A stretch of DNA of 52,276 bases, from the NCBI GenBank assembly GCA_011600865.1, contig GCA_011600865.1_4890.1; one strand, given 5' to 3'. Each line of letters begins with the position of its first letter. Position 1 is the stretch's first letter. The translations under genes and the position numbers were made by a program. Of this stretch, positions 78 through 52,276 are shown piece after piece. The DNA is from Escherichia coli. Lineage in GTDB: Bacteria; Pseudomonadota; Gammaproteobacteria; Enterobacterales; Enterobacteriaceae. The notes beneath the pieces were generated by a model. It was not told where the DNA came from. It ran no database searches and was given only the letters and a program-made list of their open reading frames with translations.

Positions 78-109
78 AAGGGCTTACGTATTTTACTACA
101 TAAGCCCTT
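78..109 (-). terminator. Putative intrinsic terminator after the primase/helicase gene
   Basis: 9 bp inverted repeat aagggctta (78-86) / taagccctt (101-109) right after the minus-strand stop at 114; the flanking sequence is U-rich on the minus-strand transcript. The 14 nt loop is unusually large. Confidence 0.35.
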
Positions 110-13111: not shown

Positions 13112-13146
13112 AAAAGGACCAGTTAACGCTGGTCCTTTTTATTTTA
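13112..13146 (+). terminator. Strong intrinsic terminator
   Basis: Perfect 10 bp stem aaaggaccag / ctggtccttt with loop ttaacg, followed by a T-run. Confidence 0.75.
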
Positions 13147-39601: not shown

Positions 39602-39705
39602 ACAAAGCCTCCAGCAAGTTTAGTCCGATTATATACCAGAACTTTATACGTGTAAATAAAAAAGGCGAGCTCGTCAGCTCGCCTTTTGTTAGTCCCGTTT
39701 GTGGG

Positions 39706-47942: not shown

Positions 47943-48184
47943 GGCTCCTGGCAGGTAGCACCCCTGCGAAATTACCCCCCGCCGCACCTATTTCGATTGA
48001 AATGATTACTCTGGTAACTATTGCGATTGATACAATTACCGGGTGAACTACTTCGGCCGTTATAGTACAAAGCGTCTATAATTCAGATTGAAATTATATT
48101 TTTATAAATAATTTCGCCGGCTCCGTTGAGTAGCACCCCTACGTTACTATAACCCCCGCCGACCATTTTGGATTGAGTAATTAC
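47943..48184. repeat. Two copies of an approximately 68 bp direct repeat in the large noncoding region
   Basis: Copy A 47943-48010 and copy B 48119-48184 share the blocks GGCTCC, GTAGCACCCCT, ACCCCCGCCG and GATTGA..ATTAC in the same order. Confidence 0.5.
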
Positions 48185-48240
48185 ATGTGAAACTATATCA
48201 ATTGCATATGAGAACCACTCTCAATCGCAAGTGATTATCA
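47993..48240. promoter_or_regulatory. Iteron-like array of GATTGA-N3-5-ATTA(C) motifs (candidate origin or operator sites)
   Basis: Direct copies starting at 47995, 48025, 48086 and 48171 and an inverted copy at 48222-48240, in AT-rich noncoding DNA between divergent gene blocks. Confidence 0.4.
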
Positions 48241-48251
48241 TTTCTAAAAAC

Positions 48252-48283
48252 TTGCATAAACTTACAAATAAAAGGTGTACAAT
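48252..48283 (+). promoter_or_regulatory. Candidate extended -10 promoter for the plus-strand early block
   Basis: AAGGTGTACAAT (TG + TACAAT at 48276-48283), related to the AGTGGTATAAT motif at the other plus-strand promoters; weak -35. Confidence 0.3.
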
Positions 48284-48547
48284 CAATAGGGATTGGACTA
48301 TTATATATTTATTGAATGTGATGACTGATTGACCAGTCAACTGGTCTGGAGGGTATTGGTATGGTTTAATTTGGGTAGGTAGTACTTAACCAGTCAACAG
48401 GTACATCTGGTAGATGTCAATGGTACCTTATGCTCTTTAACAATCTGGTGACATGTTTCTTGTTGATAGTAACACTAGTAATAGTTTCAACCAGTGACTA
48501 TTGGTAACAGTAGTCACAACTGGAAACTAATACAAGAGGTGACTATT

Positions 48548-48697
48548 ATGAAGGACAACTATACACTTTGGTATGATACCAATGAAGGGCTTTGGTGTGT
48601 CAATATCAATAATGGTCCAGTTCCAGACTTTGAGTCAATGGATGTGGAAGATTGTGTTGACTTTATCCAATCCCAAGTTGTTAAATATCAGGAGTAG
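48548..48697 (+). CDS. Hypothetical small acidic early protein
   Basis: ATG at 48548 with AGAGGTGA RBS; 49 aa. Confidence 0.5.
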   Translation: MKDNYTLWYDTNEGLWCVNINNGPVPDFESMDVEDCVDFIQSQVVKYQE

Positions 48698-48701
48698 TAA
48701 G

Positions 48702-48875
48702 ATGAAAGTTTTAGAATTGTCCCAAGAAGAACTGGAATTATTGGTTGACCAATTGGACACCACTTTATTTATGGAAAGTGACCTGTTGGAATATGACAGG
48801 GAGAGTGGAAGGGATGTCAAAGACCAGGAAGTGAGGGTCAAGTTACTCCAATCAATTCTGGATAAGTTGAAGTAA
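48702..48875 (+). CDS. Hypothetical small acidic helical protein (paralog family member)
   Basis: ATG at 48702 with AGGAG RBS; 57 aa; N-terminus MKVLELSQEELELLVDQL resembles the products of 49602-49760 and 50020-50193. Confidence 0.5.
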   Translation: MKVLELSQEELELLVDQLDTTLFMESDLLEYDRESGRDVKDQEVRVKLLQSILDKLK

Positions 48876-48879
48876 TTTC

Positions 48880-48915
48880 CAACAATGGGGACTTGGTAAA
48901 AGTCCTCATGATTGG
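48880..48915 (+). promoter_or_regulatory. Conserved intergenic hairpin element R1 (CAACAATG - 8 bp stem-loop - ATGATTG)
   Basis: CAACAATG at 48880-48887; stem 48887-48894 pairs with 48900-48907 (one G-U), loop ggtaa; followed by ATGATTGG at 48908. Confidence 0.5.
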
Positions 48916-48970
48916 ACTTACTTGTCAAGGATTGACACTTATCAAAAATTCTATCAATGAGGATACATCA

Positions 48971-49537
48971 ATGACTACTATCAACTATGTTTACCTGACT
49001 TCCGCCTTTTCTGTTGAGTCTGTAAAATCTGGTCTGACTACTGAAAGTCTTGGGACTATTGTAGTGCAGATGGATAGTCTTCAGTACTTTGCCAATAACC
49101 AAATCATTAAGATGATCAAGTCCCTTAATGATGAAAGTTCTGTAAGTGTCAAAGACTCAAAAGAAGTGCTGGTGAAAGCCCTGTTTGATGAGCTTAACCA
49201 ACTGGAAGTTGAAGAGGTCAAAGTTGTGGCATCAAGATCTTCCAATGGCGGTGCCCGGAAATCTTCATCTGGTCCATCAACAAAAGATACTTGTTATCTG
49301 GTGTTCAAAGATTACAACTTGATGGATAAAGAAGACTCAAAATTGGCACTTGTTGATGCCATGAAAGCCTGTGGGATGGAAGCGGATGACATCAAAGCCA
49401 AAAGAGTTATCCAGTCATATATGTCATACTACCGGAATGATGTAAAATCTGGTAAAGTGACTGAGGGCAAGTCAGTAACTGGTGAAAAACCTGAAACTGA
49501 AGAAAAACCTGAAACCCAAGAAACTACTGAAGAGTAA
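48971..49537 (+). CDS. Hypothetical protein with an acidic C-terminal tail
   Basis: ATG at 48971 with GAGGA RBS; 188 aa; C-terminus GEKPETEEKPETQETTEE. An in-frame ATG at 48908, right after hairpin R1, is an alternative start. Confidence 0.55.
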   Translation: MTTINYVYLTSAFSVESVKSGLTTESLGTIVVQMDSLQYFANNQIIKMIKSLNDESSVSVKDSKEVLVKALFDELNQLEVEEVKVVASRSSNGGARKSSSGPSTKDTCYLVFKDYNLMDKEDSKLALVDAMKACGMEADDIKAKRVIQSYMSYYRNDVKSGKVTEGKSVTGEKPETEEKPETQETTEE

Positions 49538-49544
49538 TTTTTGA

Positions 49545-49586
49545 GATGGCACTCAAGTAGTGCCATCAATTGAAATTATTCACAAT
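49545..49586 (+). promoter_or_regulatory. Intergenic hairpin element R4 (8 bp stem-loop followed by AATTGAAATTATTCACAA)
   Basis: Perfect stem atggcact / agtgccat (49545-49552 / 49558-49565), then the same 17-mer TTGAAATTATTCACAA that follows hairpin R3. Confidence 0.45.
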
Positions 49587-49601
49587 CAACAGGAGAGAAA
49601 C

Positions 49602-49760
49602 ATGCTTAAAATCAAACTGACCAAAGACCAGGCGATGGCTTTGCGGGATATGATGATCGAGTTAGAGAAGATGGGCACTTTTTCTGATAGTTCTCACGCT
49701 TCAACTCTTGACTATATTGTTGAAGCCATTGACGACAAATTTTCAGGTTCTGAGGAGTAA
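49602..49760 (+). CDS. Hypothetical small acidic helical protein (paralog family member)
   Basis: ATG at 49602 with AGGAGAG RBS; 52 aa; MLKIKLTKDQAMALRDMMIELE. Confidence 0.5.
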   Translation: MLKIKLTKDQAMALRDMMIELEKMGTFSDSSHASTLDYIVEAIDDKFSGSEE

Positions 49761-49765
49761 TCAAA

Positions 49766-50023
49766 ATGACTGATATTGAGATGAAAAAAGAACTGGACTT
49801 TTATGCCGAACAGTATTGGGCTGAATGGGATGAAGGTTCGCAGGAATTTGCGGAACTGGTGATAGATTCAGGAATTGATGAAGTGCGGGAACATTCCTAC
49901 ATCATCAACATGAATCTGGCGTCAATTATGGGAATAATCGCCAGCGAATTTTCTGATGGCGAGCGGGACCATGAAGACGTTGTAAGACTGGCAAAAGTTA
50001 TGGTTTGGGTGGATACATTATGA
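49766..50023 (+). CDS. Hypothetical acidic protein
   Basis: 85 aa; stop overlaps the next start in an ATGA arrangement. Confidence 0.5.
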   Translation: MTDIEMKKELDFYAEQYWAEWDEGSQEFAELVIDSGIDEVREHSYIINMNLASIMGIIASEFSDGERDHEDVVRLAKVMVWVDTL

Positions 50024-50193
50024 AAGACCTGAAATTGACTGAAGACGAATTGGCGCACCTGATTGAATTACTGGAATCAAATGCCCAAATCGTGAAAGAT
50101 CAAATATCTGACGCTGTTGGCGGTTCCAAAGAGTTTGACGACTTGATGGAAGACTTCAGGCTGACAATTCAGATCGCAACAAAGCTCGCATAG
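50020..50193 (+). CDS. Hypothetical small acidic helical protein (paralog family member)
   Basis: ATG at 50020 overlapping the upstream stop (ATGA); 57 aa; MKDLKLTEDELAHLIELLE. Confidence 0.5.
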   Translation: MKDLKLTEDELAHLIELLESNAQIVKDQISDAVGGSKEFDDLMEDFRLTIQIATKLA

Positions 50194-50196
50194 TTT

Positions 50197-50254
50197 CAAC
50201 AATGAACTATCCAAAATTGTGATAGTTCATGATTGAAATTATTCACAACAAGAG
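50197..50254 (+). promoter_or_regulatory. Conserved intergenic hairpin element R3 (CAACAATG - 8 bp stem-loop - ATGATTGAAATTATTCACAA)
   Basis: CAACAATG at 50197-50204; perfect stem gaactatc / gatagttc (50204-50211 / 50221-50228) with a 9 nt loop; same architecture as R1 and R2 but a different stem sequence. Confidence 0.5.
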
Positions 50255-50264
50255 AGAGAGAAAC

Positions 50265-50654
50265 ATGTACAGTGCAAAATGCGAAGATGGCACCTATACC
50301 GTATACTGTGATGGTGAAGTCCTCAAAGTTCTGCCAAACGCCTTCAAGTTTGAGCAATTCATGACGGTGTTGTGGGAGAACCAGGAGATTAGTCGGGAAG
50401 ACATTATTGACCTGATGAATCCTTTGATGGGGTACCATCCAATCCGCGAGTTTGACAGTCGTCCAACTTGGTATAAGCTGGAAGATGGTAAAGTCTGGGA
50501 ACAAGCCTGGGACAAATTTGAAGGTGGTTACGGCCACTGGACAGTTTATGTCGATGGCGATGATGCCCAACGTTACTGGGAGGCAATCAAAAATTGTGCG
50601 ACCCGGGACGTGACTGATCCGGAATATGACGAGTCAAAATTTGAGGTTAAGTGA
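50265..50654 (+). CDS. Hypothetical acidic protein
   Basis: ATG at 50265 with GAGAGAGAGA RBS; 129 aa. The ORF-track start at 50229 is the ATG right after hairpin R3 and would add a MIEIIHNKRERN leader. Confidence 0.55.
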   Translation: MYSAKCEDGTYTVYCDGEVLKVLPNAFKFEQFMTVLWENQEISREDIIDLMNPLMGYHPIREFDSRPTWYKLEDGKVWEQAWDKFEGGYGHWTVYVDGDDAQRYWEAIKNCATRDVTDPEYDESKFEVK

Positions 50655-50854
50655 TGCCGCTGGTCAAATTTACTACGGTAGACCTTGCCAATGGACTACC
50701 ACCCAAAGCTGAGCAAAAATTCTTGACAGTTGAGGAATGGAATGTCTGGTGCCAGTCAGCTCTAAAATCTGGGGCTAAACGCACAAATGGAGGAAAGGTG
50801 TTTACCCGCTTCAATAAAGAGTGTATAATAGTAGTACAGATAATGATTGAGTGA
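50654..50854 (+). CDS. Hypothetical small protein
   Basis: ATG at 50654 overlapping the upstream TGA (TGATG coupling); 66 aa, basic. Confidence 0.45.
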   Translation: MPLVKFTTVDLANGLPPKAEQKFLTVEEWNVWCQSALKSGAKRTNGGKVFTRFNKECIIVVQIMIE

Positions 50855-50856
50855 TT

Positions 50857-50892
50857 CAACAATGAGGATTTGCCAAAAGTCCTCATGATTGA
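50857..50892 (+). promoter_or_regulatory. Conserved intergenic hairpin element R2 (CAACAATG - 8 bp stem-loop - ATGATTGA)
   Basis: CAACAATG at 50857-50864; stem 50864-50871 pairs with 50877-50884 (one G-U), loop gccaa; followed by ATGATTGA at 50885. Confidence 0.5.
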
Positions 50893-51030
50893 ATTAACCC
50901 ACAAGTGGAGGCCTTATGTACCGCCGTAAACATGTTGTTGAGTATTCTGTTGTGAATCCTGCATATGCTGAAGGTCGGGCTATGAGGAAGCTGGTAGTGG
51001 TTTTTATGATAATTCTTATGGTATTGGCTT

Positions 51031-51276
51031 ATGTTTTCTAAGGATGACTTATATGACATTGCTCGACGTGTTAATCAACGCGATTTATCTGGTGTTACCG
51101 ATCTTTTTTCTGCCGGCACTTCTGACGATGCGGTATTACGCGAAGCGGAGCGGCGCCAAGCAGAAATACAAAGAACTGCAAGCTGCTGGAATTATCAACC
51201 CCCGAAAACTGTACCGTTAACCTGGGTTGACATGACAGTGTGGCTATTGAATAAACTTGGAATAAGGAGCAAATAA
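51031..51276 (+). CDS. Hypothetical protein
   Basis: 81 aa ORF with an ATG at 51031. Confidence 0.5.
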   Translation: MFSKDDLYDIARRVNQRDLSGVTDLFSAGTSDDAVLREAERRQAEIQRTASCWNYQPPKTVPLTWVDMTVWLLNKLGIRSK

Positions 51277-51455
51277 TGTTTAAATTCTTACAACGTAACC
51301 CTGTCAAAGGTGGCATGCAATACTGGGTGGACATCCATGGCGGTGAGTATATGATGATCGTCCGCGACGGTAAACCTGCTGAAAGCTCTTTCGCTAAAGG
51401 TTGCAACGTTTACAACCAATTGTTTGAGTTCCTGGTTGAAGGCGATTACTTGTGA
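51276..51455 (+). CDS. Hypothetical small protein (59 aa, below the ORF-track length cut-off)
   Basis: ATG at 51276 overlapping the upstream TAA (TAATG), strong RBS AAGGAG 7 nt upstream; reads MFKFLQRNPVKGGMQYWVDIHGGEYMMIVRDGKPAESSFAKGCNVYNQLFEFLVEGDYL. Confidence 0.5.
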   Translation: MFKFLQRNPVKGGMQYWVDIHGGEYMMIVRDGKPAESSFAKGCNVYNQLFEFLVEGDYL

Positions 51456-51637
51456 TTGGCTTAATCCTGGCAACATGCGTGGCTACTCATGATTGTAGTT
51501 ACAAAATTGTTGAATCCAAACCTGAATGGACTACCGTTGAACAATGTGCTACCGATAGTCCATACACCTTGCTAAATCTTGGTATTATCCCCGCCAAAAA
51601 TCAGCGTGTTATTTGTGACGAGCTGAAACAAGATTAA
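51452..51637 (+). CDS. Hypothetical small Cys-containing protein, possibly membrane or lipoprotein-like
   Basis: GTG start overlapping the upstream TGA; N-terminus MIGLILATCVATHDC is hydrophobic with a lipobox-like LATC; 61 aa. Confidence 0.4.
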   Translation: MIGLILATCVATHDCSYKIVESKPEWTTVEQCATDSPYTLLNLGIIPAKNQRVICDELKQD

Positions 51638-52065
51638 TTGACGTGATACTGAGTGCCGGGCGCAACGTAATAGTTGTAGACCCGGCAAAATTGTTCCCAT
51701 GTTAATTCTACTAGACCCACAAAGAGGCGATTCGATGCCTCGTTAAAAGTCGTGCCACTTGGAAAGCAGTCAATCACATCAGCCTTATTCATCACCACGG
51801 TAGGCTGTTTTCTTGGTAGTTCGTATATCAGTACCGGCATCTTGTTCTGAGCCTTTGCTGATGCCGCACACTGTCTCCACCATGTTCCGATAGACTTGGT
51901 ATTGTGCTTCTTCAGTTCAACACTGAAAAACGGCACACCCAACAAGTCATCCCCGCCATTAATAGACTGTTGAAGATTGCGCTCAACAGTTAATCCGAAC
52001 GAGCTATTGAACTTCTTAGCCATTTTGCGCTCAAAGTTCTGTCCTTTCTGCCTTATATTAACCAT
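51634..52065 (-). CDS. Putative PD-(D/E)XK-type nuclease (possible resolvase-like endonuclease)
   Basis: 143 aa; GGDDLLGVPFFSVELKK gives a D-x11-E-x-K arrangement; convergent with the plus-strand early genes. Confidence 0.4.
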   Translation of the reverse strand: MVNIRQKGQNFERKMAKKFNSSFGLTVERNLQQSINGGDDLLGVPFFSVELKKHNTKSIGTWWRQCAASAKAQNKMPVLIYELPRKQPTVVMNKADVIDCFPSGTTFNEASNRLFVGLVELTWEQFCRVYNYYVAPGTQYHVN

Positions 52066-52276
52066 TTATTCAGCCTCGTATACAATTCAAAGTTTTGGTA
52101 ATCAGCAACATTGATAAATATTGTAGCACATCTATTTTATAGTGTAAACGTCTACAGATTTATTTATCAATCCGGTTTTTTATTATTTTTCGCCGGCGTA
52201 AATTTTTTTCATCCGGTTCTGATATTAATAAAGAGATAAACCGGATCATACATATAGACGCCTCTAAGTAGCTGTT

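Follow-up and report, generated by a model that had tools for sequence, protein, structure and literature searches.

Layout of the early gene block

The stretch of DNA analysed here (contig GCA_011600865.1_4890.1, 52,276 bases; its full length is called the window) is, judged from its sequence, the complete genome of a BP63-like myovirus of the genus Rosemountvirus, and the subject of this report is a family of hairpins between the small genes of its early block. GenBank matches to positions 48200-51700 comprise 62 phage records, 40 of which cover at least 80% of the query, mostly with 90-97% identity, and ten of the 62 lie at 60-80%. The matching phages are mainly those of Salmonella and Escherichia, with a few of Klebsiella and Erwinia.

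Five hairpins of one design, designated E0, R1, H4, R3 and R2 in their order along the + strand, are found in the early block. E0 lies in the leader of the first early gene, and the other four lie between co-directional genes: R1 follows genes 1 and 2, H4 follows gene 3, R3 follows genes 4, 5 and 6, and R2 follows genes 7 and 8 and precedes gene 9 and those after it. Genes inside each of these groups abut or overlap, suggesting translational coupling, and the hairpins divide one such group of small genes from the next.

A candidate sigma-70 early promoter (48276-48304, + strand; TGTACA, 17 nucleotides (nt), TATTAT) was recognised by a consensus scan approximately 190 nt upstream of E0 in the window. 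Its hexamers and spacing are kept in nine of nine relatives examined, 160-190 nt before E0. From this conserved promoter-like site and the gene arrangement we infer that the early block forms a single transcript. The promoters annotated in phages S144 and AEV23 are software predictions and were set aside. Neither a phage RNA polymerase nor a ribonuclease (RNase) occurs among the annotations of the relatives, and the paper on S144, which does not mention the hairpins, concluded that the host polymerase is used (PMC7432712).

Anatomy of the hairpins

The shared design consists of an AU-rich lower stem, a small internal loop (usually 5' CA and 3' GA) and an upper stem of 9-11 base pairs (bp) with free sequence, followed on the 3' side by a short leader, a Shine-Dalgarno sequence and an ATG. 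The initial annotation had recognised one architecture at three intergenic sites, and the pattern CAACAATG-N(15-40)-CATGATTG indeed has exactly three matches (48880-48914, 50197-50235 and 50857-50891), all on the + strand, with 0 expected by chance in 100 shuffles. The stem length of 8 bp proposed for these sites has to be revised, as the upper stems of R1, R2 and R3 have 10 bp with ATG/CAT as part of the helix. Below them, CA and GA form a 2x2 internal loop, and CAA/TTG together with further bases continue as the lower stem. What had been described as conserved flanks therefore corresponds to the lower stem, the internal loop and the proximal box discussed below. The stems of R1 and R2 are alike and that of R3 is unrelated yet perfectly paired, just as had been stated.

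E0 (48475-48536, + strand) is an inverted repeat situated in the 5' leader that precedes the ATG (48548) of the first early gene, with an upper stem at 48494-48517, a 5x5 internal loop and a lower stem of at least 7 bp (folding energy (dG) -31.3, z -6.2). R1 (48871-48925, + strand) has its upper stem at 48885-48909 above a CA/GA loop, and the same arrangement is found in R3 (50188-50246, + strand; upper stem 50202-50230) and R2 (50848-50902, + strand; upper stem 50862-50886). H4 (49532-49581, + strand; upper stem 49545-49567) is built alike, except that its internal loop is larger and asymmetric. The interrupted hairpins reach 20-26 bp, with dG of -22 to -27 kcal/mol and z of -4.6 to -5.4 against shuffles. 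Each element had been placed just after a stop codon; the position at gene junctions holds, but the stop lies inside the lower stem, in its 5' strand, in R1 (TAA of gene 2, 48873-48875), H4 (TAA of gene 3, 49535-49537), R3 (TAG of gene 6, 50191-50193) and R2 (TGA of gene 8, 50852-50854).

The fourth hairpin and the shared 17-mer of the earlier description were also recovered, the former at 49545-49567 and the latter, ATTGAAATTATTCACAA, in identical form at 49569-49585 and 50232-50248. In each case the 17-mer opens a common leader. After H4 this leader (49569-49604, + strand) comprises the 3' strand of the lower stem, i.e. the 17-mer, a Shine-Dalgarno sequence and the ATG of gene 4 (49602), and after R3 (50232-50267, + strand) the same 17-mer, a Shine-Dalgarno sequence and the ATG of gene 7 (50265). 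The two leaders form a direct repeat with 83% identity, and the Shine-Dalgarno sequences lie 10-20 nt outside the hairpin structures. A small second hairpin, TGTCAA gga TTGACA, is present between R1 and the start of gene 3 (48925-48941) and is kept in S144; it accounts for the longer leader (58 nt) after R1.

Conservation of structure among related phages

We collected the early blocks of 15 GenBank relatives (emhyr, birk, S144, AEV23, fHy-Eco03, BP63, SE13, AV127, emiel, yarpen, KE25, Erwinia phage SOI901, vB_SE1_KM, PK3 and SE4) and added one contig from the IMG/VR database (L151). Homologous elements with maintained pairing are found throughout: each relative's early block possesses 4-7 intergenic hairpins of the same design, spread over at least four genera. 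The upper stems are fully different between types (ATGGGGACTT, ATGACAACTT, ATGAACTATC, GTGACAATTA, AGTGATTATC, ATGCGGTAT, AAGTCTCGG, GATGGCACT and CAGACCTCT), with 20 different upper stems among 29 distinct elements, while the flanks are conserved across types as a stop codon with TTTCAACA on the 5' side and GATTGAAATTATT on the 3' side. L151 even combines an E0-like upper stem with R-type flanks.

A covariance model of the R-type elements, built from a gapless seed alignment and searched over the whole window with filters off, recovered only R2 (78.4 bits), R1 (71.6 bits), R3 (35.2 bits) and, weakly, E0 (17.4 bits, E = 0.05). The following + strand match had E = 0.87, so the family is confined to the early block. 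IMG/VR and metagenome contigs were also scanned with the pattern and then with a stem filter. The relatives among the matches listed are L004, L060-L062 and L151, and almost all of the matches listed are due to chance. The Rfam families gave no match at the gathering score in the whole window. In E-value mode the sole match to an element was mir-1002 on R1 (27 bits, gathering score 85; E = 0.06), which we took as chance.

Whole-element alignment with MAFFT misplaces the variable stems, and pairing was therefore counted in a gapless alignment that comprised 25 distinct elements after excision of their apical loops; a model-fitted alignment that mixed + and - strand matches was excluded from the counts. 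In these 25 elements 95.1% of the cells pair, compared with 67.4% in shuffles and 29-49% with the partner slid. Double-sided changes occur in 16 of 18 pairs and the covariation score is 0.75 against 0.20; none of 500 shuffles reaches any of the observed measures. Among the 29 distinct elements, upper-stem cells comprise 256 Watson-Crick, 26 G.U, one A.C and seven other combinations, and lower-stem cells 197, 19, zero and 16, respectively. The + strand also folds better than the - strand. Since a G.U pair on the + strand is an A.C mismatch on the other, the excess of G.U over A.C (45 to 1) indicates that the folded molecule is the sense strand, i.e. the messenger RNA (mRNA). Thus, a conserved two-tier hairpin forms on the mRNA strand both in the leader and at four gene junctions, and the proposal that structure rather than sequence is conserved is strongly supported by the counts over 25-29 distinct elements.

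Individual elements illustrate how pairing has been maintained. R1 differs between the window and S144 by compensatory changes from G-C to C-G and from G-C to A-U, so that the stem GGGAC/GTCCT of the window is replaced by ACAAC/GTTGT in S144 and SE13. E0 shows a compensatory A-U to G-C change in BP63 and other changes in fHy-Eco03. The lower stem of H4 in fHy-Eco03 has U-A turned into A-U and U.G into C-G, and its upper stem is replaced entirely in S144. Some copies have the CA/GA loop closed by pairing (TC/GA in AV127 and yarpen), and the loop is enlarged in H4 and E0. In R3 of SOI901 an A-U pair becomes U-A, turning ATG/CAT into TTG/CAA. This last change bears on the suggestion that the hairpins set the choice of start codon. 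The ATG is in frame with the downstream gene in R1 and R3, as had been noted, and out of frame in R2. However, ATG...CAT is exchanged for TTG...CAA in SOI901 and for AAG...CTT in other copies, showing that pairing and not the ATG is conserved and that the ‘ATG’ represents paired stem bases. A role in start-codon choice is accordingly not upheld.

Agreement with known RNase III substrates

Escherichia coli ribonuclease III (RNase III) needs a helix of at least 11 bp from the scissile bond to the loop in the minimal substrate derived from the T7 site R1.1 (PMC1540722). Here, the 10-bp upper stem and the loop-adjacent A.G amount to 11, and the helix extends to 20-26 bp with the lower stem; the upper stems of the N, X and H4 types have 9 bp. 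In the same substrate, the proximal box (pb) calls for G-C at pb1, A-U or U-A at pb2, A-U at pb3 and a weak pair other than G-C at pb4, where native T7 R1.1 carries a C.U mismatch, and the distal box (db) consists of U-A followed by U.G, adjoining the loop-closing pair (PMC1540722). For the 29 distinct elements of the R, N, X, Y and Z types, positions were numbered from the internal loop towards the apex. Position 1 (pb3) is A-U in 24 of 29, position 2 (pb2) is U-A or A-U in 27, and position 3 (pb1) is G-C in 27, with the A.G mismatch of the CA/GA loop at pb4. Positions 4-8 and 10 vary freely. Position 9 (db1) is U-A in 21 of 29, and position 8 (db2) is U.G in eight, including every R2 copy across genera; in the window this is the U.G wobble of the R2 upper stem at the equivalent of distal-box position 2. 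The sites that RNase III cuts in E. coli in vivo are over-represented in intergenic regions within transcripts and in 5' untranslated regions (PMC6212723), and all five elements lie in such places of the inferred early transcript. Internal loops and mismatches are also reported to limit RNase III to cuts of a single strand, which leave stabilising 3' hairpins (PMC3867540). Anatomy, placement and the few invariant base pairs are hence all in agreement with known E. coli RNase III substrates.

The early operon of phage T7 offers the closest comparison. When the intergenic regions were folded from the T7 record, the early sites R0.3, R0.5, R1, R1.1 and R1.3 and the late sites R4.7 and R18.5 all showed a lower stem, an internal loop, an upper stem of 9-10 bp and a small loop, with the stop codon of gene 0.4 inside the lower stem of R0.5. 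The hairpins here share with T7 the two-tier structure, the upstream stop codon in the lower stem (as in T7 R0.5), the pairs of the proximal box and, in many copies, those of the distal box. Like the T7 early sites they occupy leader and intercistronic positions in what would be a polycistronic early mRNA made by the host polymerase. The distance to the next start is also similar: predicted cuts here lie 26-58 nt before it, and the early T7 cuts reportedly 27-35 nt (120 nt for R1.1). In contrast, T7 sites keep the sequence of the upper stem (AAGGUC...GGCCUU), whereas in the present hairpins conservation rests in the lower stem and flanks and leaves the upper stem free; the internal loop is asymmetric in T7 and mostly a symmetric 2x2 CA/GA loop here. 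The carrier here is a myovirus unrelated to T7 and without an RNA polymerase of its own, and its RNase III cleavage is predicted. The kind of element has long been known from T7, but the pattern of conservation, with a free upper stem above a fixed lower stem and loop, is unusual. A likeness of CAUGAUUG here to T7 UAUGAUUG is offset by 3 nt relative to the structure and was treated as coincidence.

A covariance model made from the seven T7 sites only was searched against both strands of the window with filters off. Its best match in the 52 kb is H4 (49532-49581, + strand), which is aligned over the full length (26.1 bits, E = 1.9e-4), followed at 15.2 bits by a canonical terminator. The H4-type element ranks first in 14 of 14 related loci (21.6-28 bits), including S144, PK3 and SE4 despite their unrelated upper stem, and in unrelated viral contigs (0.9 Mb) no score exceeds 18.1 bits. 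E0 was not found by this model in the window. According to the models, H4 belongs with the T7 sites by both sequence and structure while R1, R2 and R3 do not, the latter matching the functional rules instead.

Proposed RNase III processing and alternative readings

Taken together, the hairpins are probably processing signals for host RNase III in a polycistronic early mRNA produced by the host RNA polymerase. Among the roles listed in the initial annotation, RNA processing is the one favoured by the T7 folds, the box rules and the T7-site model. Under this proposal, a transcript from the site at 48276-48304 would run through E0 and the co-directional genes, and RNase III would bind the helix of about 11 bp above the internal loop. 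Because the loop interrupts the helix, a single strand would be cut, as at the T7 early sites. On the T7 analogy, and given the reported effect of internal loops (PMC3867540), the cut is predicted on the 3' side, two nt beyond pb4 (CAUGAU/UGAAAUU in R1, R2 and R3, the slash marking the cut), and the predicted cuts fall just 5' of UGAAAUUAUU at 48912/48913, 49570/49571, 50233/50234 and 50889/50890. For H4, the alignment to the T7 model puts the T7 cut at CAAU/UGAAAUU; the box rule for the R-type and the model alignment for H4 thereby arrive at the same spot relative to the shared UUGAAAUUAUU. The shared 17-mer would then become the 5' end of the processed downstream message, which would begin with an unstructured leader of 26-58 nt bearing the Shine-Dalgarno sequence, and the upstream message would end in a protective 3' hairpin. 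Each gene group could in this way gain its own stability and yield.

Several points weigh against this proposal. The early promoter is no more than a match to the consensus that relatives have kept. In the simplest register, the Y, Z, H4 and E0 types miss the proximal-box consensus, with for instance G-C at pb3 or pb2, and R3 has A-U at position 2 of the distal box, which is reported as disfavoured in the minimal substrate (PMC1540722). Moreover, common descent and gene conversion link the elements, so that the match to the boxes has no clean probability. The T7-site model gives R1, R2, R3 and the N type only 12-15 bits, which is not significant (R3 11.8 bits, E = 3 in the window; R1, R2 and N at 12-15 bits in the relatives), and the case for the R-type consequently depends on anatomy and box rules; the reciprocal search of the T7 early region with the R-type model found nothing significant (best E = 1.9). 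The T7 cut coordinates are reportedly those of Dunn and Studier in 1983. Of these, R1.1 alone was cross-checked, against published numbering (PMC1540722). Finally, the papers searched report no cleavage, transcript-end or rnc-dependence data for these phages, and none of them links RNase III or intergenic hairpins to this group.

Stable intercistronic hairpins on the mRNA strand, each with an AU-rich single-stranded tract on its 3' side, could also act as passive stability barriers like repetitive extragenic palindromes (REP), blocking 3'-to-5' exonucleases after RNase E has cut in the AU-rich leader (UGAAAUUAUU) and giving segmental stability with no cleavage of double-stranded RNA. We regard this as unlikely, since it leaves unexplained why the invariant pairs are exactly the RNase III boxes, why about 10 bp always separate the internal loop from the apical loop above it, and why the T7 RNase III-site model picks out H4. 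REP and bacterial interspersed mosaic elements (BIME) are imperfect palindromes after stop codons within enterobacterial operons and act on mRNA, in which they resemble the hairpins here; however, REPs conserve the sequence of the stem, are host-chromosomal and serve as exonuclease barriers, and the hairpins have neither sequence similarity to them nor an Rfam match. The conservation of loop and lower stem under a free upper stem, along with the many early proteins that lack a known function, might instead point to recognition of the CA/GA loop and the lower stem by an RNA-binding protein, of phage or host, that regulates translation or decay of the early genes. This appears improbable: the Shine-Dalgarno sequences lie 10-20 nt outside the structure, making simple occlusion unlikely, the loop is paired shut in AV127 and yarpen (TC/GA) and enlarged in H4 and E0, and no candidate protein was identified.

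It is more improbable still that the elements are primarily recombination modules with no RNA function, comparable to the joints formed by promoter-early stem-loops (PeSL), whose hairpins would be by-products of palindromic joints. This would be in line with the varying gene content, with hairpin types re-paired with other downstream genes, with the absence of genes 4-6 and R3 from AV127 and emiel at a junction in the shared leader, with tandem hairpins (AV127, emiel and yarpen) at a place where a gene intervenes in SE13 and S144, and with the PeSL precedent in T4-like phages (PMC4122927). Recombination, however, requires identity and not pairing, and the compensatory changes in 16 of 18 pairs, the 45:1 ratio of G.U over A.C on the sense strand and the fixed length of the helix are not expected from it. 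Recombination is more likely to be a side effect of the elements than their function. Least credible of all, and hardly tenable, are terminators, attenuators or antitermination targets grading expression along the early operon. Stable hairpins positioned after stop codons would suit such a role, but neither the upper stem nor the structure as a whole is followed by a U-run (the tails read GATTGAAA and then CACAAC), a terminator scan reports none of the five elements, and the apical loops are not conserved, unlike those of nut boxB. Canonical intrinsic terminators with stems of 12-13 bp and a U-run are found elsewhere in the genome, at 78-109 (- strand), 13112-13139 and 39660-39687 (- strand). 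Two of these three have an A-run/U-run symmetry suggestive of bidirectional action.

Promoters of several kinds were considered and rejected. For sigma-70 promoters in the hairpins there are only 24-35 nt from R2, R3 and H4 to the next start. The TTGACA after R1 has a 14-nt spacer whose length changes in S144, and TTCAAC-17-TGTGATAGT at R3 has no counterpart in R1 or R2. The hairpin-type promoter put forward in the initial annotation, as known from N4, needs pairing in the template strand and a virion polymerase; here it is the non-template strand that carries the wobble pairs, and the annotations include no gene for a phage RNA polymerase (PMC7432712).

If RNase III processing is confirmed, punctuation of early polycistronic mRNA by this enzyme would not be a speciality of the T7 group, and the same device would operate in unrelated myoviruses that are candidates for therapy (Rosemountvirus, Loughboroughvirus and allies) and wholly reliant on the host polymerase. 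The proposal yields exact predicted cut sites and would explain the discrete grouping of the small early genes.

Hairpin flanks as joints for early-gene cassettes

The genes between the hairpins vary among relatives. For instance, AV127 and emiel have the H4 hairpin with its own 3' flank joined straight to gene 7, genes 4-6 and R3 being absent, and the junction of this deletion falls inside the shared GGAGAGAGAAACATG leader. AV127, emiel and yarpen carry two tandem hairpins where SE13 and S144 possess an intervening gene. Hairpin types are also re-paired with different downstream genes between phages: a membrane-protein gene follows R2 in the window and an H4-type hairpin in fHy-Eco03, KE25, SOI901 and vB_SE1_KM. 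It is better supported that the repeated flanks serve, as a secondary, evolutionary effect, as sites of homologous recombination by which early-gene cassettes are added, removed and reshuffled. Such repeated joints for gain and loss of host-takeover genes, one of which is toxic to E. coli in a relative (PMC8145870), matter for annotation and engineering.

In T4-like phages, PeSL motifs are joints for indels and gene swaps (PMC4122927). They resemble the present elements in being short repeated intergenic stem-loops that flank small variable early genes, and in that indel and gene-swap junctions between relatives fall in the motif (PMC2839356, PMC4122927). However, a PeSL is a composite of terminator and promoter, whereas the hairpins here have no U-tract and, with 24-35 nt after R2, R3 and H4, no room for a promoter before the next start; no promoter-like site with conserved spacing was found in or after them.

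A bolder proposal, which we put forward tentatively and consider rather doubtful, is that hairpin, fixed cut site and standard leader with its Shine-Dalgarno sequence constitute a portable expression cassette for captured host-takeover genes, with the same repeats acting as recombination joints. If true, the cassette would supply new genes of the early operon with ready signals for processing, stability and translation, and phages would thereby have a counterpart of integron-like gene capture that needs no integrase. In a variant of this proposal, the conserved CA/GA loop may be read by a factor other than RNase III.

Other features of the early region

In fHy-Eco03 the homologous block of small genes sits within a direct terminal repeat of 3,699 bp, and by homology the region from about 47950 to 52276 is probably a collapsed terminal repeat. 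The window would then have been opened near the physical genome end, with the early block present twice in virion DNA. Further upstream of the hairpin family, the divergent intergenic region contains an AT-rich hairpin at 48089-48116 (TGAAATTAT / ATAATTTCG, then CCGGC), which is kept in every relative examined, including Erwinia phage SOI901, and may serve as an origin, an operator or a bidirectional signal. Between the candidate promoter and E0, the long leader contains repeated palindromic motifs at 48330-48420 (ACCAGTCAAC(T/A)GG and a GGTAC...GTACC hairpin), and relatives have a different palindrome, TGTGTTGAAcaaTTCAACACA, near the equivalent position.

The C-terminus of gene 3 (49476-49522) is encoded by an 18-nt tandem repeat giving EKPET-like units, annotated as repeat_region in several GenBank relatives. 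The repeat_region features of GenBank do not correspond to the hairpins: one is this kind of coding tandem repeat and one is an unrelated site. Downstream of R2, two open reading frames overlap in different frames at 51031-51276 (81 amino acids) and 51044-51220 (58 amino acids, membrane-like), and annotators of different relatives have picked either one. The homologue of the 81-residue frame in fHy-Eco03, g05, was the most toxic gene for E. coli in one study (PMC8145870). A further hairpin (GTGGCTAC / GTAGTTAC, with CTCATGATTG in the loop) is situated at 51479-51502, within the start of the last early gene (51452-51637). It is kept in emhyr and birk, and may represent either a decayed relative of the family or a chance structure.

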